Assembly (NCBI GenBank): GCA_001804805.1
Contig: MHBH01000073.1
Location: forward strand, 94,539-158,538
Reading direction: 5' to 3'
Length of the DNA stretch: 64,000 nucleotides
DNA from: Lentisphaerae bacterium GWF2_49_21
GTDB lineage: Bacteria > Verrucomicrobiota > Lentisphaeria > Victivallales > GWF2-50-93
Positions 12,818 to 61,730 of this stretch are shown here, one piece after another. Made by a program: the position numbers and the translations under genes. The notes beneath the pieces are model-generated. The model did not search any database, had not been told where the DNA came from, and was given only the letters and a program-made list of their open reading frames with translations. Within the stretch, counting starts at the first letter, position 1, and the number at the start of each line of letters is the position of its first letter.

Positions 12818-13531
12818 ATGAAACAATGGATTACAGACCTGCTTGCCTTGCAGGAGGTTGATTTGAGGATTCGCGGGCTCAAGACAAGGCTTTCACTGGT
12901 TCCCGAGGAGATTGCGAAGATAGACAGGGAATTTGAAAACGAGAAGACCAAGGTCTCGCAGGCCAAGGAGGCAATGCTTGCGATCGAGCTCGAAATAAAG
13001 AAGAAGGAATCGGAGATAAAGGAACAGAACGAGCTGACGAAGAAATACCAGACGCAGTCGGCGATGATCAAGAAGAATGAAGAATACCGCGCAATGATGA
13101 ATGAGATCGAAGGTGTTAAGAAAAAGATAGGCGAAATTGAGACGGAGGAGCTTGTGCTCATGGAGAAGATCGAAGCTGCAAGAAATGTCTTCAGATCTGA
13201 GGAGAAGATATACAAGGACAGGGAAAAGGCCATTGTCGATGAGAAGAACGAGCTTAAGGAGCTCGAGGGGAAATTGAAGGCCGAAATTGAAAAACAGAAG
13301 TCCTCCAGGGCGGAAGTGGCGGCCAAAGTGACTCCGGATGTCATGTCTGTCTATACCAGGATGCTTGGAAAGAACAAGGGAACTCCTTTTGCCGAAGTCC
13401 ATCAGGGGATATGCGGCAACTGCCATTTGAAACTCACCCCCCAGACCATAAATTCCGTGAGGAAGGAAATGCAGGTATACTGCGACAATTGCGGTCATCT
13501 GGTCTACACAACAGAAACTGGTTCAGACTGA
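12818..13531 (+). CDS. COG1579-type coiled-coil protein with a C-terminal C4 zinc ribbon
   Basis: 237 aa. A long coiled coil rich in Glu and Lys, then CGNCHLKL…CDNCGHLVY. Confidence 0.7.
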   Translation: MKQWITDLLALQEVDLRIRGLKTRLSLVPEEIAKIDREFENEKTKVSQAKEAMLAIELEIKKKESEIKEQNELTKKYQTQSAMIKKNEEYRAMMNEIEGVKKKIGEIETEELVLMEKIEAARNVFRSEEKIYKDREKAIVDEKNELKELEGKLKAEIEKQKSSRAEVAAKVTPDVMSVYTRMLGKNKGTPFAEVHQGICGNCHLKLTPQTINSVRKEMQVYCDNCGHLVYTTETGSD

Positions 13532-13533
13532 AC

Positions 13534-14343
13534 ATGCCGGATACTCTGAAAGATATCTGCTGGTTCATGGAAGTTGCCTATGACGGCACGGATTTTTCCG
13601 GATGGCAGGTCCAGCCGGACAGCATCACCGTCCAGCAGGTGCTTGAGGAGAAACTCGGCATAATCTATGCAAACCAGCTGATACACACCGATTCGAGCGG
13701 AAGGACGGACGCCGGAGTCCATGCCATCGGACAGACGGTCACATTCCGGGCGCCGGGACGTCCTATCGTGCAGGACTGGAAGCTCTACAAGGCCCTGAAC
13801 AGGATGCTTCCACAGACCTTGAGGATCAGGGAGGTCATGGAAGTAGATGAAAAGTTCCACGCAAGATTCTCAGCCGTAGGCAAGGCCTATACCTACGTCA
13901 TCAACAGAGGACTGCCAAGCCCGTTTTCCGACAGATGGAGCTGGAACATCAGTGATTTTTCAGATCTCTGCGAACTTCGCAAGGCCGCAGACTGCCTGAC
14001 CGGGGTGCATGATTTTTCATCGTTTACCGTCGACAGGAAGGAAATAGACGATGCAGTGAGGACGATCTACCGGATAGAGATACATGAATTCGGTGATCTC
14101 GTTTGCATGACTTTTGTCGGAGACGGATTCCTCTACAAGATGATACGGAGCCTCATGGGTACTCTTGCTTTTGTCGGGACTGGGAAAGTCAAGGCCGTGG
14201 AAGTGAAGGATATTCTTGAAAGCAGGAAGAGGACTTCAGCTTATGACACCGCTCCTGCACAGGGGCTTTTCCTGATGAAAGTATTCTACGACGACAAATC
14301 GATGAAGAAATTCAAACTGGAAAAACCTCCGTTCTGGGCCTGA
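13534..14343 (+). CDS. truA: tRNA pseudouridine(38-40) synthase TruA
   Basis: MPDTLKDICWFMEVAYDGTDFSGWQVQPD…RTDAGVHA, the TruA catalytic-Asp motif. I used the internal ATG directly after the upstream stop. The track's 5' extension overlaps the previous gene. Confidence 0.85.
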   Translation: MPDTLKDICWFMEVAYDGTDFSGWQVQPDSITVQQVLEEKLGIIYANQLIHTDSSGRTDAGVHAIGQTVTFRAPGRPIVQDWKLYKALNRMLPQTLRIREVMEVDEKFHARFSAVGKAYTYVINRGLPSPFSDRWSWNISDFSDLCELRKAADCLTGVHDFSSFTVDRKEIDDAVRTIYRIEIHEFGDLVCMTFVGDGFLYKMIRSLMGTLAFVGTGKVKAVEVKDILESRKRTSAYDTAPAQGLFLMKVFYDDKSMKKFKLEKPPFWA

Positions 14344-28868: not shown

Positions 28869-29636
28869 ATGCCTGCATTTTCCAATATTGACAGTCCGCA
28901 GTTGTTCTGGATACTTGCATTCATATCAGCTTTCTTCATTGGTTTCTCCAAGAGCGGGATAAGCGGGGCGGGGATACTGGCGATTCCTCTCATGGCGTGC
29001 ATTTTTCCGCCCAAGGAATCGACAGGAATACTTCTTCCCATGCTCATCATGGGTGACATCATTGGAGTCTATTTCTACCGTCAGCATACACAGTGGAAGC
29101 ACATCCTGAGGGCATTGCCATGGGCTTTTGTTGGAATTATCGCGGGCTGGCTTTTCATGAAATATTCTGATATAAGCCAGGCTGATTTCAAGAAATATAT
29201 CGGGGTGGTTGTCATTGTAATGCTCATCGTTGGTGAGTGGTTCAACAGGACCAGCGACGAAAAGACCCGGCATATCCCCCATAGCTGGTATTTTGCAGCC
29301 ATTATCGGTGTGACCGGAGGGATAACGACGATGACAGCCAACGCTGCCGGGCCGGTTTTTGCGATCTATCTGCTGTCACTCGGTCTTCCAAAGGAAAATT
29401 TCATAGGCACTACGGCCTGGATATTTTTCATACTCAACACAAGCAAGGTTCTTTTCAGCTGGGAACTGGGATTCATAACCGAGGAAACCCTGGTATTCAA
29501 CGCCGGAATGATCCCAGCTCTTATAATCGGTTCCCTTGTGGGGGTGAAGACTGTGAAATACATTAAAAACAATACGTTCTCAATACTCGTGAAGATATTT
29601 GCGATTCTCGCAGCCGGATATCTGATCTTCAAGTAG
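28869..29636 (+). CDS. TauE/SafE-family membrane exporter
   Basis: 255 aa with 8 TM helices. N-terminal …GFSKSGISGAGILAIPLM… matches TauE/SafE. Confidence 0.7.
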   Translation: MPAFSNIDSPQLFWILAFISAFFIGFSKSGISGAGILAIPLMACIFPPKESTGILLPMLIMGDIIGVYFYRQHTQWKHILRALPWAFVGIIAGWLFMKYSDISQADFKKYIGVVVIVMLIVGEWFNRTSDEKTRHIPHSWYFAAIIGVTGGITTMTANAAGPVFAIYLLSLGLPKENFIGTTAWIFFILNTSKVLFSWELGFITEETLVFNAGMIPALIIGSLVGVKTVKYIKNNTFSILVKIFAILAAGYLIFK

Positions 29637-33356: not shown

Positions 33357-33465
33357 AATGCCCCCTCTTTAGGGAATCGCCATGTTTTATAAGTTCCCTT
33401 TAGTTACAAACTTAAAAATATATTCATCCGAGGGCAATCTTCAAGCAGGGAAAGAGGGATTTTAC

Positions 33466-33606
33466 ATGTTTGTAGTAGGCGAATTCATTCGCCGTTCTTC
33501 AAGTAGGTACGTGCTTCAGCATGTACCATCTTTAATTTTAAACATGGGACAGGTTAAAACCCGTCCCTACTTCAAGAACGTGCAATAAATTGCACTACTA
33601 CGAACA
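33466..33606 (+). repeat. Structured repeat element, copy 1 (about 140 bp; TIRs gttTgtagtag / ctactacGaac; four internal hairpins)
   Basis: Shares the core …aagtaggtacgtgcttcagcatgtaccatctt…gggacagg…cccgtccctac…agaacg(t/c)gcaataaattgc(a/g)c…ctactac with 55176-55312 and 60876-60990. Confidence 0.75.
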
Positions 33607-35100
33607 GAGGGATTGAATCTCAATCTTTTCAAACCTGACAACACCATTTTGACAGGCAAGGAAAAGAGAGTTTCCTTTCAGTTCGTGGCAGCGGTTTATG
33701 ATGCACTGCCTGTTGTCAATGCAGATGTCTATGATGTCGTCCTTAAGTATGATCTCCAGCTTGAAGGGACGACCTAGGTCGACTGTAGACAAAATCGTCT
33801 CCTTGCCGAGTGAAATACTGTTCCTGTGGCAGTCGAAATTAAAATCAAACTTACTTTCATAATTGCCCGATCCTCGCAGGCCAAACCCGAAGAAATATGA
33901 ATTTTTCTTCGGTCGGACAACGCAGTTCAAATTATAATTCATCGGAAGATTTTCAAAAGCGGCAACTTCCAGTTTTTCCGCTGCATTTAATTCAACGGAG
34001 GCGATTTCAAAATTGCCGAATTCAAGGTAGGGATGGCTCTCCGAGCCGTCCGTATTGAAGCGGCGGTTTCGGAGAAACCGCCCTACCTTAGGTAATTTTG
34101 AAATCAGCTCAACGGATTTTCCTTTACACTTTGCTCCTGAAGTCAGTCGTCTCAAGGAGGTCTTGACGGCTTTTCCAGAAGGGATCATTTCCTTGAGGAA
34201 TCTTACTCCAAGCGTGCCATCTCTGTTCTGGATGATTTCGCGGAATACAGTCTGCCCTCCCCATAACATCCATTCGGAATCCTTGTTGTCCTTGCGCGGA
34301 CCTATCCAGCCGACGCCGATCCGCCTGTTTTTGCCGAATGGGGCAGTCTTCATGACCGCATTCAGATGGCTGTCAAGGACATCCACCTGCGGACGCTGCC
34401 AGGGGCCGAAAGGCTTTTTCGACATCCTGTAGAATGTCTGAAGTCCGATTCCGAAAAGCAGATAGTACCAGCCCTTCCAGAAAAAATGGTCCGGACATTC
34501 CGGTATGCCTCCCCATCCGGTTCCACCGACGGGAATGAGAAAAATACCTTCAAATTTCCATGTGCTCAGGTCTTTGGATGTATATCTTAAAAGACATCCT
34601 CCCCGATCATGCAGGGGATATTGTTCAATTTTGGACGTGACCAGCATATTGTACCTGCCGGTTTCGTCCTTGAATATAAAGGGATCCCGGCAGTCCTTTG
34701 GGGAAAATCCGGGCAGGGATGAGGCAAATGGATTCGGAGTCAATTTCCTGAACTTTATGCAGTCATCACTGACAGCATGGCTAAGGTGCTGGGTATGATC
34801 CGGCTTCCGTGTGGCATAAAACGCATGGTACTGTCCCTTGTCATAGAAAGTGGAGCCGGTGCAGATCGAGCCTTCCCAGTCCTCTTCCAGTGGAACTGCC
34901 AGGGGATGATGTTTCCAATGGACAAGATCCCTGCTTGAGCAGTGGGCCCACTGATGCCCGCCCAATCCTCCTTTTCCCTGATGATGCCCTTCGTCGAGAA
35001 GATAGAAAAGATGGAAAATTCCGTCGTGGTAAAACGGCATGCAGTCGCCGACGTAATATCCCGGTTTTGGCTGGAAATATTGCATATAGGCCCTTTCCAT
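33598..35100 (-). CDS. Glycoside hydrolase family 32 (beta-fructofuranosidase/levanase-like)
   Basis: N-terminal block YVGDCMPFYHDGIFHLFY (equivalent to the WMNDPNG…YHLFYQ nucleophile block), an RDP motif (CRDPFIF), and an EC motif (GIPECPDHF). Confidence 0.7.
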   Translation of the reverse strand: MERAYMQYFQPKPGYYVGDCMPFYHDGIFHLFYLLDEGHHQGKGGLGGHQWAHCSSRDLVHWKHHPLAVPLEEDWEGSICTGSTFYDKGQYHAFYATRKPDHTQHLSHAVSDDCIKFRKLTPNPFASSLPGFSPKDCRDPFIFKDETGRYNMLVTSKIEQYPLHDRGGCLLRYTSKDLSTWKFEGIFLIPVGGTGWGGIPECPDHFFWKGWYYLLFGIGLQTFYRMSKKPFGPWQRPQVDVLDSHLNAVMKTAPFGKNRRIGVGWIGPRKDNKDSEWMLWGGQTVFREIIQNRDGTLGVRFLKEMIPSGKAVKTSLRRLTSGAKCKGKSVELISKLPKVGRFLRNRRFNTDGSESHPYLEFGNFEIASVELNAAEKLEVAAFENLPMNYNLNCVVRPKKNSYFFGFGLRGSGNYESKFDFNFDCHRNSISLGKETILSTVDLGRPFKLEIILKDDIIDICIDNRQCIINRCHELKGNSLFLACQNGVVRFEKIEIQSLCS

Positions 35101-46085: not shown

Positions 46086-46222
46086 GAAACAAGTATTGTT
46101 AGAATATCCACGAAATTATTGATTATAAAAAAGCGGCGCGTACACGCCGCACTCCGAAAGTCAGGCCGAAGAGCCTGACATAAAGACAATCCAGCCTAAA
46201 CGAGAAGACTTCTACATAGAAA

Positions 46223-46233
46223 TGTAAGTTACA
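46223..46233 (+). promoter_or_regulatory. LacI-type palindromic operator candidate tgtaaGttaca (site 1 upstream of the regulator gene)
   Basis: 11-bp odd palindrome. The same motif recurs at 46298, 56364 and 56453. Confidence 0.55.
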
Positions 46234-46297
46234 TAAGGAAAATGAGGAAATACTTCAATAGGCCAATTGACAAAGGAGGATGAAAGAATATAATAGC

Positions 46298-46308
46298 TGT
46301 AACTTACA
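46298..46308 (+). promoter_or_regulatory. LacI-type palindromic operator candidate tgtaaCttaca (site 2, 15 bp upstream of the regulator ATG)
   Basis: Reverse complement of site 1. Flanked as gctgtaacttacagtaa. Confidence 0.55.
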
Positions 46309-46322
46309 GTAATAAAAATGGG

Positions 46323-47450
46323 ATGCCTATGAAGAAAAGCATATATGACATCGCGAAGATGGCTGGCGTTTCCACCGCGACAGTGTCCCGCGTAATGAAC
46401 AACACCGACCAGATCAGCGAAGCCACCAGGACCTCAGTCCTGAAGGCCATCAGGGACGCGAACTATGTGCCCCGCGGAAGCGGCAATGCAAGAACAAGAA
46501 GGAAATCCCCTGACTCCTTTGGAAATTCAGGTGGCACCTTTGAACTGCTTTTCTGCTTCAGCCACGGAGGAGAACGCCTGCATGTCGACGAAAGTAAAAT
46601 CGAAGTGCAGGAATTCAAACACATACCCCCGGAGGAGTTCGTGTCAGGAAGCTCCTTCTACAGGCCGATCAGCGACGGTGCTATCGACGAGGCGAGGAAA
46701 TTCGGATTCAAGACCATAATGCACTGCATCCGGAAGGACGCTCTGAACAGCGCGGAACTCATCCAGTCGCTCTACGACGACAAAATATCAGGTCTTCTTC
46801 TTGCAGGAGAACAGCCTGACGGACTTGCAGAATTCCTGAAGAACTTCAAGCTGCCTGTCATTCTCGTGGACATGATGGCCGGCAACGGCGCCGTGGAAGT
46901 CACCACCGACAATCTGGAAGGCATATCGCAGGCTTTTGAGCATGTCTATTCCCTCGGACACAGGAAGATAGGGTTCATGATTGGAGACGACAGTGTTCCG
47001 GCCTACCGGGAGAGACATCTTTCATTCGTATATAAGATGGCGGAAAAGGGGCTGAAGGTGAAGGAGGAATGGGTATACAGGGGAACGAACCACATAACTG
47101 ATGCAGCCGAATGGGGCATGAAGTTCTTCAAGCGCCGGGATCTGCCCACCGCCTTTCTCTGTACGAACGACTATTGTGCGCTGGGATTGCTCCGGGCGGC
47201 GTTCAAGAATGGAGTCAGGATTCCTGAAGATCTGAGCATTGTCGGATTCGACGACATGGAGACTTCAAGCCTGGTTACCCCTACGCTTACGACTGTGAAT
47301 GTGGCGAAGTCGGAGATTGGACGCTTTTCCGCAAGGGAACTTATCGTCTCATTGAAAAACGGGAGAAGGCCTTCAAATGCCCCGCAATGCCGTGTTCATC
47401 TTAAACCCAGTCTTGTGAAACGTGAATCCACTGCAGCGGTGAAGAAGTAG
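46323..47450 (+). CDS. LacI-family transcriptional regulator
   Basis: N-terminal [24 protein letters not shown], then a periplasmic-binding-protein-like sugar-binding core. Candidate operators lie upstream. Confidence 0.8.
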
Positions 47451-47458
47451 AGGGCTAC

Positions 47459-48289
47459 ATGGAAAATTTGAAATTTAAAATCGGAAATCGGCAATCCCAC
47501 TTCGCCCGAGGAGCTTCGAGGGACAGGTCGGCAATTGGCAATGCATTCACCCTTATCGAGCTCCTGGTCGTCATTGCGATCATCGCAATTCTCTGTGCGC
47601 TGCTTCTTCCCGCCCTCGGCCGCGCGAAACTGGTCGCACGAAGCATTGCGTGCTTGAGCAACATCAAACAGCTTGGAGTCTGGGGTCTCTCATATGGTGC
47701 CGACTATGATGGATATCTTCCATATAACGGACAGAAATGGCCATGCTCCTTTGAAGGATACGATGATGGCAGTTCCGGCTGGAGCGATACATCCAAATGC
47801 TCCCTGACGATTTCAGGCAAGACCGACGACACTGTCATGCACTGCCCCCAGACCAGCACGGCAATCGGGAAAACTTTGACCGGCGGCAAAGGCTGCCATT
47901 ATAGTCTGAATGCAAGGCTCGGAGCCGTGGGTTCACCAAACGCGGTGACACACTGGCCATATCCGCACATATCAAAACTGACCGAGAAGAAATTCTGGTT
48001 CGCCGATGGAGCCCTGCGTTACCGCCCAAGTGCAAGTCCGAAGGAGATCGCAATACAGTCGGCTATGATGTTCGACTACTGGGACAGCAACCCCCTCTGG
48101 GACGGCATGAAGCTGCCGTGGATGTGGTACAACGAATACTATAAAGTGACCGGGGCCGGAGGCCCTGTCCCGTTTGTTACACATCCTGGAGGTGCGAATT
48201 TTGTCTTTGGAGACGGACATGCGGAGGCGGTAAGATATTTATCCTATTACAATATGTCGGCTGCTGAAAAAAATGCATTCTATAAGTAA
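47459..48289 (+). CDS. DUF1559 (H-X9-DG) protein with a type IV pilin-like N-terminal helix
   Basis: …[30 protein letters not shown]…, and a C-terminal [13 protein letters not shown] (H-X9-DG). Confidence 0.8.
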
Positions 48290-52898: not shown

Positions 52899-52905
52899 GA
52901 ATGTA

Positions 52906-52926
52906 GAACAGGCATCTTGCCTGTTC
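52906..52926 (+). terminator. Hairpin after the glycyl radical enzyme (gaacaggca tct tgcctgttc), first of three related 'caggc' hairpins
   Basis: Perfect 9-bp stem starting 8 nt after the stop. Related hairpins at 53001-53017 and 53072-53090. Confidence 0.4.
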
Positions 52927-53098
52927 ATTGAATTGAATATCCAATATCCAACAAGGAATTTCGAATGTCCAAGTGGAGATATTTTAAACAAGAGAAGACC
53001 ACAGGCGGGACGCCTGTTCCACATTGAAAGAATAAAAGAAAGTGGTACAGCCGTCTCGGCTGTAATTAGATCACAGGCAAGATGCCTGTGTTACATTT

Positions 53099-55175: not shown

Positions 55176-55312
55176 TGTTTGTAGTAGGCGTATTTATACG
55201 CCGTTAAGTAGGTACGTGCTTCAGCATGTACCATCTTAATCAGTAAGAAGGGGACAGGCTAAAGCCCGTCCCTACCTTATAGAACGCGCAATAAATTGCG
55301 CTACTACCAACG
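55176..55312 (+). repeat. Structured repeat element, copy 2; starts 1 nt after the GH26 stop codon
   Basis: TIRs gtttgtagtag / ctactacCaac. Hairpins ggcgtat-tt-atacgcc, ggtacgtgc-ttca-gcatgtacc, gggacaggc-taaa-gcccgtccc and gcgcaat-aa-attgcgc. Confidence 0.75.
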
Positions 55313-56312: not shown

Positions 56313-56363
56313 AAGTTAAATATTTCCTGTTCTCACGTCATAGGCGGAAAAAGTGCAGGCCGC

Positions 56364-56374
56364 TGTAAGTTACA
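56364..56374 (+). promoter_or_regulatory. LacI-type operator candidate tgtaaGttaca (site 3, upstream of the DUF1559 gene)
   Basis: Identical to site 1 at 46223. It lies 110 bp upstream of the TTG/ATG of the 56484 gene. Confidence 0.5.
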
Positions 56375-56452
56375 TGGCGATAAATGTAAATATTTTATCA
56401 TCCCCCATTGACATAAGAGGATAAAAAGCATAAACTGAAGGTATGCAGGCAA

Positions 56453-56463
56453 TGTAACTTACA
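56453..56463 (+). promoter_or_regulatory. LacI-type operator candidate tgtaaCttaca (site 4)
   Basis: Identical to site 2 at 46298, and in the same order, spaced 89 bp after site 3 (the pair at the regulator is 75 bp apart). It lies 21 bp upstream of the start codon. Confidence 0.5.
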
Positions 56464-56483
56464 GTGATAATGGCTGGAGGCTT

Positions 56484-57212
56484 ATGAAAAACTCGAAACT
56501 TGCAATCCGAAGTTCGAAAGACGGGAGAGGGAAAAGAGGTTATTTTACGCTCATTGAGTTGCTCGTGGTCATCGCCATCATCGCGATTCTGGCGGCATTG
56601 TTGCTTCCGGCGCTGAACAATGCCAAGTTGACGGCAAAAAGCGTAGTGTGTCTGAGCAATCTCAAACAAAATGTTTTAGCTGCCTACTCATATGGTTCCG
56701 AAAATGACATGTATGTGCCAATTATAGGAAAGCTCGCAGGGGGATGGAGAGATTATTCGTATTTGTTGACGCAAGAAAAATATATGGATAATAGCAATGC
56801 CCGAGCTTGTCCTCGCGGCCAACCCTACAAAAGCTGTTATGGCTATGGAACACAAAGTGGAACAGCCAGTTCTGGCCCCAGATTTGAAGCCCCTTATCCG
56901 GCTTTCAACATATCATATGGGGGAGGAGACTATATGAAATTTCGAGCACTAAATCAAATATCTCAGCCAAATAATTATACATATATTTGTGATGTAAGCA
57001 ATTGGGAAGCCAAACAATACTTCGACGTTACACCAACAAACGCCTGGGCTTCTTTGGGGCTGCGTCATTTTCGGAAGGCCAACGCTGCTCTATGGGATGG
57101 TCACGCAGAAGGGCGCACAGGGAAAAACTGGTACAACTCTGGATTCACCTCAGGATTTATTGTCCTCAGCGAGGCCATTGCCTCCAGCAGTGCTGCTCCG
57201 GTTAATTTTTAA
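56484..57212 (+). CDS. DUF1559 (H-X9-DG) protein with a type IV pilin-like N-terminus
   Basis: …[31 protein letters not shown]…, and a C-terminal [13 protein letters not shown]. Confidence 0.8.
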
Positions 57213-58088: not shown

Positions 58089-60878
58089 ATGAAAATCAAA
58101 GTTCTTATGGCAATCTTTGCTGTGGCGCTATTCCTTGTTATGGACGCCGTATCCGCCGCCGACGTTTCCCTGAACGACAATGGCATAGCTGTTACGGTCA
58201 AGGGAATGGGCGGATTCAACCTTGGTTATCCGGTACTTCAGCCTGGTGATTTGAAACCTTTGCAGAAGAAGGTTTCCGGCAAACAGGCAGATGTCACCTA
58301 CGCCAAAGACATAAAAGTCCACCTTGAAGTGGTTGATGGCGGAAAAGTCAACATGAAATTCAGCAATGCCTCTGCGGTCAAGAACTTCAGGCTCGATATC
58401 GGATTTGGTGCGCAGTTAGCGGATGGCGGCACCTGGACCATCGGCAAAGGCCAGCCGCAAACCTTCCCGGTCGAGAAACCGGCGAAACCTCACCTCTATC
58501 AGGGCAACTCGGGAGGCTTTACATTGATCGATGCGGCCGGACACATATTGTCTGTCACAGGTTTTCCCGACTACGCCTATCAGGAACTGACCGATCTTCG
58601 CGAATGGGGCAACAAGGCATACGCTTGGAAAGTGACTGTCCCCTACAATCCAGGATGGGAAGTTCACAGCATAGTAGTCAGCGAGAAACCACATGGCGCC
58701 GCTGCCACTGCTGCTCCAACGACCGTGAAAGTTCAGGTCGACCGCTTTGGACAGACCACACGCAAGGACTTTCCGGGCAAAGTGAAGGACGAGGCTGACC
58801 TGAAGGCTGATGTAGCAAACGAAGCGGCATACTGGGCCAGCTATAAGCCGATACCAGTTGACAAATGGGGAGGACTTCCCGGCAGCAAGGAAAAGCTCGG
58901 ATTGAATTCGACTGGATTCTTCCGGGTTGAAAAGAAGAATGATCGCTGGCTGCTCATCAATCCTGACGGCAACGTCACGTTCCACCTTGGAATCTGCGTT
59001 TTCAGCTATAATCCGGGTGATGAGGCGACATACATCAAGGACCGCCGCGACATCTACGAGTGGCTTCCTCCGCTAGATGGAGAATTCGCCGACGCCTGGC
59101 ACCCAGACAAGTGGTGGCATGATCAGGTTTTCTCATTCTATTCTGCAAACGTCATCCGCAAATATGGCAAGGAGACAACCAAGGACCAGCAGATAGCGCG
59201 TCTGATTGACCGCGTGCGCGCAGTGGGATTTAATGCCATAGGCGCGTTCTCAGGTTCATCCCGGGCATTCGTTGACAAGCATATCCCGCGCATGTCCGGT
59301 GTCGGGTTCAATCCAGAACTGCCCGGCATCCGCGGAGTAGCTGATCCATTTGATGAGGAAACGCGTAAGAAGACAGAGGAAATCTGGGCGGAAAAATTGC
59401 CCAAACAGGCGGACGATCCTCTGATCATCGGATTCTTCTTTGCAAACGAGCAGGGATTCGAGGATATTCCGCGGGCCGTTCCGCAGTTGCCAGGGAAACA
59501 TGCGGCAAAGAAAAAACTTGTCGAAATGCTGCAGAAGAAGTATCCGACCATCGCCGAATTCAACACCGCCTGGAACCTGCAGGTTGCGGATTTCGCAGCT
59601 CTTGCCGACAAGGGACTGCCAGTGTCAACCAAGGCCGCCTACGCCGACATGCAGGAATATACCGAACTGTTCCTCGACACATACTTTAAATTCCTCACCG
59701 AGACTTTCCGCAAATATGACAAGAACCATCTGATGGTGTCCAACCGCTGGCAGCCAGGCACCGCAAACAACGAGGCCCTCTGCCGCATCGCCGGCAAGTA
59801 TATGGACGTCATCAGCATCAACTATTATACCTGGGGTGTAGACAAGAACTTCATCGAGCGACTCTATAAATGGACTGGTGGTAAACCGCAGATGTGGAGT
59901 GAGTTCTACTACACCAGCGGTATCGAGAGCAACGTTGCGGCTGGCGGCTTGGACATGAAGTCGCAGCAGGCTCGTGGTGAGGCTTACCGCCAATACGTCG
60001 AGCAGGCTGCTGCCCTCGGGTTCGTGGTTGGTGTCGAATGGTTCACATTGATTGACCAGGCGGTGACCGGACGCTGGTTCTCAAAGCTTAACGGCGAACG
60101 CGCCAACAGCGGACTATTCAACACCTGCGACCGTCCATACGACACCTGTCTGCGTGAGATGGCGAAGTCGCATGAGGTCTTATACGACGTTCTGTTGAAC
60201 GGGAAGAAACCCTTTACCCTTGAAGACCCTCGCTTTGCAGGTGGTGCAGGCAAGACCCGCAAGCAGGTGCAGGCTGGCAGTGTGCCTGCCGGTAGCATTA
60301 AGATCGACGGAATGGCCGATGGATGGCCGGGCCGCCCCCCGGAGCGTGTCACAAACGATCGTCTGGTCGAGGGCAAGGACGGCAAGGGGCTTGAAGGATC
60401 CTTCAAGGTAGCCTGGGACACTGACAATCTCTATCTGCTAATCAATGTCACCGATCCGACGCCTCTCAATAACACTGCTCAGGGTGATAAACTGTGGAAC
60501 GGCGACGGAGTTGAGCTGTTCATCGGCAGCGAAAAGCTGGACCAGCCCGGAACATTGCTGTTCAGCGATCGTCAGGTGCTGCTTGCAGGCCGGACGGATA
60601 TCAAACCGGGAAGCACTCATATTGTGAACGCCGCAAAACAGCCTGAGATCCGCCTGATCAACGTGCCGTCGGTCGACGGCAGCGGTTATACCATGGAGGC
60701 GGCTATTCCGTGGGCCGCGCTCGATGTGAAGCCAGTCGAAGGGATGGATCTTATCTTTGACATGGCGATAGATGACGCTCCACAAGGTGGCAGCCGTACC
60801 CGCCAGATCATGTGGAATGGCGGCGAAAAGAACAGTAGTGATCGCTCATATTGGGGCCGCCTGAAACTGGTGCGATAA
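58089..60878 (+). CDS. Secreted large glycoside hydrolase-like protein with a C-terminal CBM9/DOMON-like carbohydrate-binding domain
   Basis: Signal peptide. Central TIM-barrel-like region with an NEQ acid/base-like motif (FFANEQGFED) and ISINYYTWG. C-terminal …IKIDGMADGWPG…FKVAWDTDNLYLLINVTD…GDGVELFIG is CBM9-like. Confidence 0.55.
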   Translation: MKIKVLMAIFAVALFLVMDAVSAADVSLNDNGIAVTVKGMGGFNLGYPVLQPGDLKPLQKKVSGKQADVTYAKDIKVHLEVVDGGKVNMKFSNASAVKNFRLDIGFGAQLADGGTWTIGKGQPQTFPVEKPAKPHLYQGNSGGFTLIDAAGHILSVTGFPDYAYQELTDLREWGNKAYAWKVTVPYNPGWEVHSIVVSEKPHGAAATAAPTTVKVQVDRFGQTTRKDFPGKVKDEADLKADVANEAAYWASYKPIPVDKWGGLPGSKEKLGLNSTGFFRVEKKNDRWLLINPDGNVTFHLGICVFSYNPGDEATYIKDRRDIYEWLPPLDGEFADAWHPDKWWHDQVFSFYSANVIRKYGKETTKDQQIARLIDRVRAVGFNAIGAFSGSSRAFVDKHIPRMSGVGFNPELPGIRGVADPFDEETRKKTEEIWAEKLPKQADDPLIIGFFFANEQGFEDIPRAVPQLPGKHAAKKKLVEMLQKKYPTIAEFNTAWNLQVADFAALADKGLPVSTKAAYADMQEYTELFLDTYFKFLTETFRKYDKNHLMVSNRWQPGTANNEALCRIAGKYMDVISINYYTWGVDKNFIERLYKWTGGKPQMWSEFYYTSGIESNVAAGGLDMKSQQARGEAYRQYVEQAAALGFVVGVEWFTLIDQAVTGRWFSKLNGERANSGLFNTCDRPYDTCLREMAKSHEVLYDVLLNGKKPFTLEDPRFAGGAGKTRKQVQAGSVPAGSIKIDGMADGWPGRPPERVTNDRLVEGKDGKGLEGSFKVAWDTDNLYLLINVTDPTPLNNTAQGDKLWNGDGVELFIGSEKLDQPGTLLFSDRQVLLAGRTDIKPGSTHIVNAAKQPEIRLINVPSVDGSGYTMEAAIPWAALDVKPVEGMDLIFDMAIDDAPQGGSRTRQIMWNGGEKNSSDRSYWGRLKLVR

Positions 60879-60990
60879 GTAGGTACGTGCTTCAGCATGT
60901 ACCATCTTAATTTCTAAGAAAGGGACAGGCTTCCGACTTCGCCCAATGGGCTACGCCGGACACAGAAAGCCCGTCCCTACTTTTAGAACG
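60876..60990 (+). repeat. Structured repeat element, copy 3 (5'- and 3'-truncated, with a 36-bp palindromic insertion in the loop of hairpin 3); overlaps the stop codon of the 58089 gene
   Basis: taagtaggtacgtgcttcagcatgtaccatcttaatt…gggacaggc[ttccgacttcgcccaatgggctacgccggacacagaa]agcccgtccctac…agaacg. It lacks the gtttgtagtag and ctactac termini. Confidence 0.65.
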
Positions 60991-61061
60991 ATCAAACACG
61001 AACTGTCCATCAACTCTAGGGTTGAATAAGAAATGATTAGTACAGCAAGAGAAAGATAAAA

Positions 61062-61730
61062 TTGAAAATTGAAAATAAATTTACCCTTATCGAACTGCTG
61101 ATCGTGATTGCGATCATCGCAATTCTCATCGCCCTTCTGCTGCCTGCCCTTAAGAATGCAAAGCTGTCTGCAAAAAGCGTGGTGTGCCTGAGCAATCTCA
61201 GGCAGAATGCCGTAGCGGCCCTGGCGTATTCCGCGGACAATGATCTGCGGGTTCCGCTTTTCACAATCAGTGGCAGCCATGATTATTCAAGGTTCCTGAC
61301 TGATGGCAAGTACCTTGAAGCAACACCTGCCAGAGGCTGTCCCTGGGCTCCGCCGTATGGCACAAAATACGGACCGGGCAACATATCTACATCTCGCGGC
61401 TATGGTGTCTTTGCTTCAGGTGCCAGTACAGAGAGCTTTGGAACGACCACGGTGTATATCCTTTCATTGTCGAAATTAACAAATCCTGCCAACAAGGTAT
61501 ATATCATTGATTCAAGCACAGGGCAGGGGGCCCAGTATCCCGATCTTGCCTGGGGTTTTCCTTCCTGGGCTGTTGGATTTGTGGGGCTTCGCCATTTCCG
61601 CAAGGCCAATGCGGCGCTCTTTGATGGACGTGCCGAGGGACGCGAAGGAAAAGCCTGGGGGCTTACTGGCGCCTATCTTGTCCTGAAAGATACGATTAGT
61701 TCAAACAGCGCGGTTCAGTTGAATTTCTAA
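61062..61730 (+). CDS. DUF1559 (H-X9-DG) protein with a type IV pilin-like N-terminus; TTG start
   Basis: (TTG) [34 protein letters not shown]…, and a C-terminal [13 protein letters not shown]. Confidence 0.75.

Follow-up and report, generated by a model that had tools for sequence, protein, structure and literature searches.

The hairpin cluster that separates a GH26 gene from a polysaccharide deacetylase gene raises the question of what the compensatory base changes of an intergenic element can reveal: do they mark a structured RNA of the host, or a repeat whose hairpins are recognized for its own propagation? The cluster (c2) is one of three copies of an element in the 64,000-nt stretch of DNA that was analysed (the window), the others being a second full copy (c1) and a truncated one (c3). 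The original prediction described four hairpins at c2 (H1 to H4), with compensatory changes in H1, H3 and H4 between copies and an H2 that is identical in all three, and took them as the signature of a functional RNA or DNA cruciform rather than of MITE copies. When the copies were read and aligned, the hairpins and their differences were found as described (Table 1). The element is nevertheless not a unique structured RNA, and we regard it as rather likely to be a copy of a dispersed REP/REPIN-like family of the Victivallales (Lentisphaerota).

Table 1. Coordinates of repeat elements in the window and of Y1 genes in related loci (positions are those of the window unless a locus is given).
Feature	Position	Strand	Remarks
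c1, full element	33466..33606	+	between two minus-strand genes, hence antisense to local transcription
c1, H1	33478..33493		GGCGAAT-TC-ATTCGCC
c1, H3	33546..33567		GGGACAGGT-TAAA-ACCCGTCCC
c1, H4	33580..33595		GTGCAAT-AA-ATTGCAC
c2, full four-hairpin element	55176..55312	+	GH26 stop codon 55173-55175 upstream; polysaccharide deacetylase start 55335 downstream
c2, GTAGTAG head + H1	55181..55202	+	REP-B type; hairpin 55187-55202, GGCGTAT-TT-ATACGCC
c2, GTAG head + H2	55208..55232	+	REP-A, GGTACGTGC-TTCA-GCATGTACC; G·T at stem position 6
c2, spacer	55233..55250		variable; separates two inverted REP-A units
c2, H3 + CTAC	55251..55275	-	inverted REP-A unit; hairpin 55251-55272, GGGACAGGC-TAAA-GCCCGTCCC
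c2, H4 + CTACTAC	55286..55307	-	inverted REP-B type unit; hairpin 55286-55301, GCGCAAT-AA-ATTGCGC
c3, truncated element	60876..60995	+	H2 60882-60903; H3 arms 60922-60930 / 60969-60977
REP-C	34027..34086		inverted doublet GTAG-GGATGGCTC-TCC-GAGCCGTCC / GTAG-GGCGGTTTC-TCC-GAAACCGCC; inside GH32-like ORF
REP-D	52903..53094		four ACAGGCn...nGCCTGT hairpins; intergenic; outer two inverted, GTAG/GTAA-headed
Syntenic Y1 gene	L116 1501-1914		window's ENA sample
Syntenic Y1 gene	L117 1501-1953		
Syntenic Y1 gene	L052 7168-7659		
P0122-lineage Y1 gene	L105 3001-3444		intact
P0122-lineage Y1 gene	L009 4592-4728		decayed
P0122-lineage Y1 gene	L083 759-1020		decayed
P0122-lineage Y1 gene	L103 ~13329-13593		decayed

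Between c1 and c2, an A-T pair of H1 has become T-A and a T-A pair of H4 has become C-G, and H3 carries C-G in c2 versus T-A in c1. All 6 differences among the 64 stem positions fall within these three compensated pairs; outside the stems, 14 of the 72 aligned positions differ, and the alignment contains 5 indel columns. In simulations, 20 substitutions placed at random kept all pairs with P ~2e-4, and six substitutions confined to the stems did so with P ~8e-4. The H2 sequence is the same at 33506, 55211 and 60882, a recurrence for which the chance expectation is none.

The stems of H2 and H3 are 9 bp long with 4-nt loops, and those of H1 and H4 are 5-7 bp. H3 has on the + strand an A·C mismatch at stem position 6, where H2 has G·U, a feature that the original prediction had not recorded. 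Because H3 is an inverted variant of H2, the wobble pair of H2 appears in H3 as A·C; when H3 is read on the - strand as GTAG-GGGACGGGC-TTTA-GCCTGTCCC, position 6 is again G·T. The element is closed by terminal inverted repeats of 11-15 bp, GTTyGTAGTAG / CTACTACrAAC, and in the commonest variant H4 is the exact reverse complement of H1, lying in H1's inverted position; the modular whole is itself one large imperfect palindrome. Its predicted fold is a cloverleaf, in which a terminal stem made by the inverted ends TGTTTGTAGTAG / CTACTACCAACG closes the four hairpins. For c2 as RNA, the + strand gave -62.3 kcal/mol (z = -8.65 against shuffled sequence) and the - strand z = -7.87; z was -6.58 for c2 as DNA and -10.5 for c1. 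Both strands are thus predicted to fold equally well, and DNA, like RNA, to fold far better than shuffles.

An exact-match scan with the H2 sequence, taking one genome per species, recovered 55 copies in four Victivallales genomes, of which 42 are in one MAG (GWF2_50_93) and 8, 3 and 2 in the others; about 0.75 Mb of related sequence, mostly from MAGs, was examined. The commonest form is TTCGTAGTAG-CGCATGTTTGCGCG-TTAAGTAG-GTACGTGCTTCAGCATGTACC-ATCTTAATCTAAGAAT-GGGACAGGCTAAAGCCCGTCCC-TACTTTAAGAAC-GCGCAAACATGCGC-TACTACGAAC, with a fixed order B-A-spacer-A'-B' and the conserved linkers TTAAGTAG and TACTTTAAGAAC. An inverted H3 follows H2 after 10-27 nt in at least 39 of 58 copies, and further copies have insertions in the loop, as does c3, in which 38 nt are inserted within the H3 loop and H1 and H4 are missing. 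The outer hairpins are wholly missing in many other copies as well. Where present, the outer slots (REP-B) are occupied by at least four alternative hairpin types, some of them with GNRA-like or UUCG-like loops of the C(GNRA)G and C(UUCG)G type. REP-B units also occur alone and as doublets of their own, and tandem REP-A units are found, for example, at locus L027. In the sequence examined, about 37 of 52 GTAGTAG sites are followed by a REP-B-type hairpin in a conserved flanking context.

Every hairpin of the element is preceded 5' by GTAG on the hairpin's own strand. In a census of about 116 H2/H3-type units, about 125 own-orientation readings of the REP-A head gave GTAG 122 times. At REP-A stem position 6 the G·T pair is almost invariant, and its polarity tracks the GTAG head, not the direction of transcription.

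The claim that the substitutions are non-random with respect to pairing could be examined in alignments from the four genomes. The H3 slot was aligned from H2-anchored copies; since H3 was not used in retrieval, this alignment is free of H2-anchor bias. In it, 90.3% of the cells were paired and 4 of 8 pairs had changed on both sides (12 cells), and the covariation score was 0.266 versus 0.093 for shuffled alignments, with none of 500 shuffles, which ignore relatedness, scoring as high. When the register was slid, just 24-55% of the cells were paired. The REP-B units, anchored on GTAGTAG only, gave 96.3% paired cells, 4 of 5 pairs doubly changed (17 cells), and a score of 0.715 versus 0.186, again with 0 of 500 such shuffles as high. 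The comparison with slid registers leads to the same conclusion, as does the count of distinct pair types. REP-A stem variants found across the genomes are all complementary (GGTACGTGC/GCATGTACC, GGGACGGGC/GCCTGTCCC, GGTACGGGC/GCCTGTACC, GGTACGCCC/GGGTGTACC, GGTACGTCC/GGATGTACC), and the pairing-preserving variation spans more than 100 units. The substitutions therefore did not scatter at random with respect to pairing as the sample grew; pairing was kept, and this claim held.

Selection is not the only process that could couple the two arms of a hairpin. Intrastrand template switching or hairpin-templated repair could copy a mutation from one arm to the other mechanically, with no selection needed, and the observation that every change leads to a perfect Watson-Crick partner would agree with such a process. 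Rare intermediates with a mismatch do exist: an H1 of the form GGCGAAT-TT-ATACGCC, with an A·A mismatch and intermediate between the c1 and c2 forms, was found at loci L031 and L043, and there are single-sided changes. Templating should, however, erase the G·T at position 6, yet this pair is near-invariant with fixed polarity, and it leaves unexplained the GTAG heads, the conserved loops and the 96% identity of an orthologous copy together with its spacer (see below). We consider this mechanical origin very improbable.

If pairing is under selection, the question becomes what reads it. A REP is a short imperfect hairpin that has a conserved GTAG on the 5' side of its foot and, in its stem, a mismatch required for binding by the Y1 protein TnpA_REP (PMC3479197). 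In a REPIN, two REPs in inverted orientation flank a spacer; hairpins are predicted for it as ssDNA or mRNA, and compensatory changes are common (PMC3116915). The Victivallales element has the sequence features of both, namely an imperfect stem-loop, a 5' GTAG, a polar mismatch, many extragenic copies and inverted doublets, and it shares with BIMEs the arrangement of different REP types in a regular mosaic with linkers. Because compensatory changes had already been documented in REPINs (PMC3116915), they provide no contrast with mobile repeats, and they cannot discriminate between an RNA function for the host and recognition of the hairpins for the element's own propagation. Thus, selection on pairing, as asserted in the original prediction, is supported, whereas the contrast that it drew with mobile repeats is not: the family is dispersed, modular and GTAG-headed, with copies in both orientations and copies missing from a relative.

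The element can be described as a nested inverted doublet of two palindrome kinds, in the order REP-B (H1), REP-A (H2), spacer, inverted REP-A (H3) and inverted REP-B (H4), a single strand of which, either DNA at a replication fork or transcribed RNA, would fold into the four-hairpin cloverleaf. From this anatomy we infer mobilization by a Y1 enzyme: the hairpin with its 5' GTAG on one DNA strand would be the substrate of a Y1 HUH protein of the RAYT type, which would propagate or maintain the repeats, as in E. coli and Pseudomonas, and the hairpins would be kept for that reason. Copies at gene 3' ends may additionally act on mRNA ends. Dyad symmetry, intergenic location and independence of orientation could also be expected of binding sites for a host protein, such as a nucleoid or topology factor of the kind proposed for E. 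coli BIMEs, in which case the dyad would be kept for a dimer on dsDNA. A sequence-specific dimer site, however, should conserve its sequence and not let the stem pairs covary freely, and the asymmetry of the GTAG head, like the G·T mismatch, suggests that a single strand is read; we give such sites hardly any credence.

The genomic placement of the copies bears on whether RNA or DNA is the recognized form. According to an ORF heuristic applied to 58 copies, 53 are intergenic. Convergent genes enclose 18 copies, tandem genes 25 and divergent genes 3. Most copies adjoin gene 3' ends, often 0-50 nt from the stop codon, and several provide the stop of the upstream gene, which is then the TAG within GTAG or the TAA within TAAGTAG. 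Two cases belong to the window: the GTAGTAG head of the inverted H4 of c1 is the source of the TAG stop (33598-33600) of a GH32-like gene, and the TAAGTAGG head of c3 contains the TAA stop of a CBM9 gene. This proximity to gene ends, the very stable RNA folds and the C(GNRA)G and C(UUCG)G type loops in alternative outer modules would be in keeping with selection at the RNA level, by which the hairpins protect mRNA from 3'-exonucleases or serve as terminators or insulators at gene ends or in operons, and have spread through their benefit to the host. The copies in tandem contexts show no orientation preference with respect to transcription, however (13 sense, 12 antisense), and the G·T polarity follows the GTAG head, so that an A·C mismatch would be present in half of the transcripts. 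The + strand of c2 lacks a U-tract, and the search for intrinsic terminators found none on this strand. One weak terminator-like site on the - strand, at H3, speaks for the RNA level, though it is within shuffle expectation. No match in the window reached the Rfam gathering score, hits in the region being at chance level (E >= 0.08), and a scan of the window detected no tRNA or tmRNA. The two-way orientation, the missing + strand U-tract and the missing Rfam match, together with the equal folding of both strands, argue against the RNA function favored in the original prediction. Because the G·T/GTAG polarity follows the element and the two orientations are equally frequent, we favor a model in which one DNA strand is recognized over one in which the RNA functions strand-specifically, and judge selection at the RNA level to be unlikely.

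A comparison with a close relative addresses how stable the copies are. The window genome is also represented in ENA sample ERZ27254744, and the relative CAZRKP010000012.1 (locus L109) encodes a deacetylase protein 93% identical to that of the window. L109 retains the GH26-deacetylase gene pair and a CBM9 homologue; the two genes that lie between the deacetylase and CBM9 genes in the window are missing from it, and the gene after CBM9 is different. At the c2 site L109 has an unrelated 94-bp spacer, and at the c3 site an ordinary TGA stop followed by 32 bp. Since both c2 and c3 are missing there, copies are, judging by these sequences, gained or lost between close relatives. The absence of the element beside the same neighboring genes is a further point against selection at the RNA level.

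Evidence of the opposite kind came from an all-against-all comparison of flanks for orthologous copies shared between species, which yielded one clear pair, L026 and L043. The two copies are identical at 76 of 79 positions (96%), the locus-specific spacer included, whereas the third codon positions of the adjoining gene are identical at 44 of 73 (60%; p = 4e-8 versus the copy) and the downstream spacer is not alignable. Conservation above that of synonymous sites shows real constraint on a resident copy, at this one orthologous locus; it speaks for selection at the RNA level, and selfish propagation explains it no better than a host-level function does.

Copies that come and go, carry terminal inverted repeats of 11-15 bp and share their genomes with an IS4-family insertion sequence that has true MITE derivatives could be conventional MITEs, that is, deletion derivatives of an insertion sequence with a DDE transposase, moved by means of their terminal repeats, the inner hairpins being incidental. 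The 9-bp direct repeat AGAGGGATT on both sides of c1 (33446-33454 / 33606-33614) could hint at cut-and-paste insertion. Between the left repeat and the inverted end there are 6 extra bases, and the repeat is not present at other copies: no regular target duplication was seen in 10 other full-length copies, and an apparent repeat at c2 is native sequence that is also found in the relative. No insertion sequence with matching ends was detected in about 0.75 Mb of loci. In addition, the ends of the element are REP-B units that also exist alone and as doublets, H1 and H4 are missing in many copies, and incidental hairpins would not give the observed covariation. An origin as a conventional MITE is accordingly quite improbable in our view.

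The IS4-family insertion sequence (L061 297-2209; also L064 and L092) carries a 98-aa ORF and the gene for a 510-aa DDE_Tnp_1 transposase that contains a YREK-like motif. It terminates in CTrTCTACTATACGCAT, a sequence similar to the Tn5 mosaic end and different from the ends of the repeat element. MITE derivatives with about 290 bp between the end repeats are present at L002 4861-5306, L049 6120-6545, L037, L052, L009 and in many Ga0209417 contigs. The insertion sequence and its MITEs sit in the loops of H3-type REP hairpins and are flanked by the 10-bp duplication GGCTAAAGCC; therefore, the REP loop appears to be their target. A different insertion of about 37 nt, TTCCGACTTCGCCCAAnGGGCTACGCCGGACACAGAA, recurs in H3 loops (window 60931-60968, L027, L032 and L015) and has a GTAG-headed mini-hairpin of its own on the opposite strand; other H3 loops, at L030 and L035, contain different insertions.

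The favored reading, a REP/REPIN-like family, gains from the presence of Y1 transposase genes in these genomes, one of them in the window's ENA sample, and all loci were searched for Y1/HUH proteins by regular expression, by phmmer and with an HMM built from 120 homologues. Only L052 and L083, and fragments in L009, L103 and L071, were detected in the loci. No Y1 (RAYT-type) gene flanked by REP-A/REP-B inverted repeats was found in about 0.75 Mb, which covers part of each genome. The Y1 genes fall into two lineages (Table 1). The first is a gene for a protein of 137-150 aa that is syntenic (LigT, HAD hydrolase, Y1) in three genomes. In all three its flanks bear conserved hairpins, CCTAGGGTTGAAACCCTAGG, TCCGTCCCTTCAGGACGA and ATCCTTTCAGGAT, that are its own and differ from REP-A and REP-B. 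The L052 member is typed as IS200/IS605 by NCBIfam, and the single-copy, apparently vertically inherited character of this gene resembles that of domesticated RAYTs. The second lineage (P0122, 147 aa, PF01797) lies inside units bounded by Tn5-like inverted repeats, within which GTAG-headed hairpins in inverted orientation, GATAGTAG-CCGGAGGTC...GACCTCCGG, lie on either side of the Y1 gene; several copies have decayed through different internal deletions. Locus L009 was considered as a dead RAYT gene with inverted REP-A flanks, and this was rejected: the flanking CTGTCTACTATACGCAT is a Tn5-like terminal inverted repeat, the apparent two REPs are a single H3 hairpin split by an insertion with the GGCTAAAGCC duplication, and the intact IS4-family insertion sequence shares the same ends and target.

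The nearest known counterparts are the REPs and BIMEs of E. coli with TnpA_REP (RayT). These are likewise imperfect palindromes of ~25-35 nt in which the hairpin foot has a conserved 5' GTAG and the stem a mismatch whose polarity is fixed; they are extragenic near gene 3' ends in both orientations, combine several REP types with linkers as mosaics, and are targets of insertion sequences, among them IS1397 and ISKpn1. Unlike the E. coli repeats, those of the Victivallales, which belong to another phylum (Lentisphaerota), are unrelated in sequence and modest in copy number (42 exact-H2 copies in one MAG), and the Y1 genes are IS200-like by NCBIfam (L052) or database labels, with no repeat-flanked RAYT found. 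Among RAYTs, an association with REPs is known for groups 2 and 3 only (PMC5581495). The REPINs of Pseudomonas fluorescens are similar in being inverted REP doublets with a short, less conserved spacer and a hairpin or cloverleaf predicted in ssDNA or mRNA, in their common compensatory changes, and in occurring as singlets and ordered clusters (PMC3116915), with which the tandem REP-A units at L027 can be compared. Here, in contrast, the nesting of two REP types (B-A-A'-B') produces four local hairpins, any of at least four hairpin types can occupy the outer slots, and no proximity to a RAYT was found. MITEs such as the Correia elements of Neisseria are also ~100-150 bp long, intergenic and bounded by terminal inverted repeats, are often co-transcribed, and are present or absent between strains; they differ from the Victivallales element, for which neither a consistent target-site duplication nor a matching autonomous insertion sequence was found, and whose ends are independent GTAG-headed hairpin units. 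The BOX elements of Streptococcus pneumoniae are likewise short boxes in variable combinations that form stable predicted intergenic hairpins; BOX modules, however, lack GTAG-headed palindromes in inverted doublets and have no sequence similarity to the Victivallales repeats.

No earlier description of such repeats in Lentisphaerota was found in the searchable literature. The REP signature of GTAG head, imperfect hairpin and inverted doublets thus extends to this phylum, which gives annotators a reason against calling such intergenic hairpins novel regulatory RNAs and provides a small system in which to ask the open question whether usefulness to the host explains the persistence of REPINs. 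The insertion sequence that may target REP loops, the further GTAG-headed families, one of them in a gene, and the conserved orthologous copy deserve more work. All of these might be joined into a single reading, in which the Victivallales harbor a REPIN-type system new to the phylum, with several co-resident GTAG-headed families under purifying selection at orthologous sites, served by the syntenic single-copy IS200-like Y1 of a group new to REPINs, with an IS4-family insertion sequence and MITEs landing in the REP loop and repeats even in frame inside a gene; as a whole, this combination is speculative, and we would not expect all of it to hold.

The further families include REP-C and REP-D. 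The REP-C doublet lies within a GH32-like ORF (33598-35100, - strand) that continues uninterrupted across it, and between the two domains of the encoded protein there are about 33 residues that a solved GH32 structure lacks; the doublet may be an in-frame repeat insertion. A PDB sequence search gave no alignment across that region. REP-C is dispersed, with covarying stems at at least eight other loci. The REP-D stems show compensated differences; REP-D also occurs at window position 29633 and has relatives in L004, L012, L030, L033 and L095.

Two other recurrent sequences of the window are of a different kind. The palindromic motif TGTAACTTACAGT has 8 matches versus 0.7 expected; pairs of it (46221-46233, 46296-46310, 56362-56374 and 56451-56465) precede a gene for a LacI-family regulator (46323-47450) and the gene at 56484, and the motif is probably a LacI-type operator. 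A 164-nt stretch is repeated at gene 5' ends (47546-47709, 56544-56707 and 61080-61243) and encodes prepilin-type N-terminal methylation motifs in at least two genes (56484 and 61062); this is ordinary gene-family similarity, separate from the repeat element.
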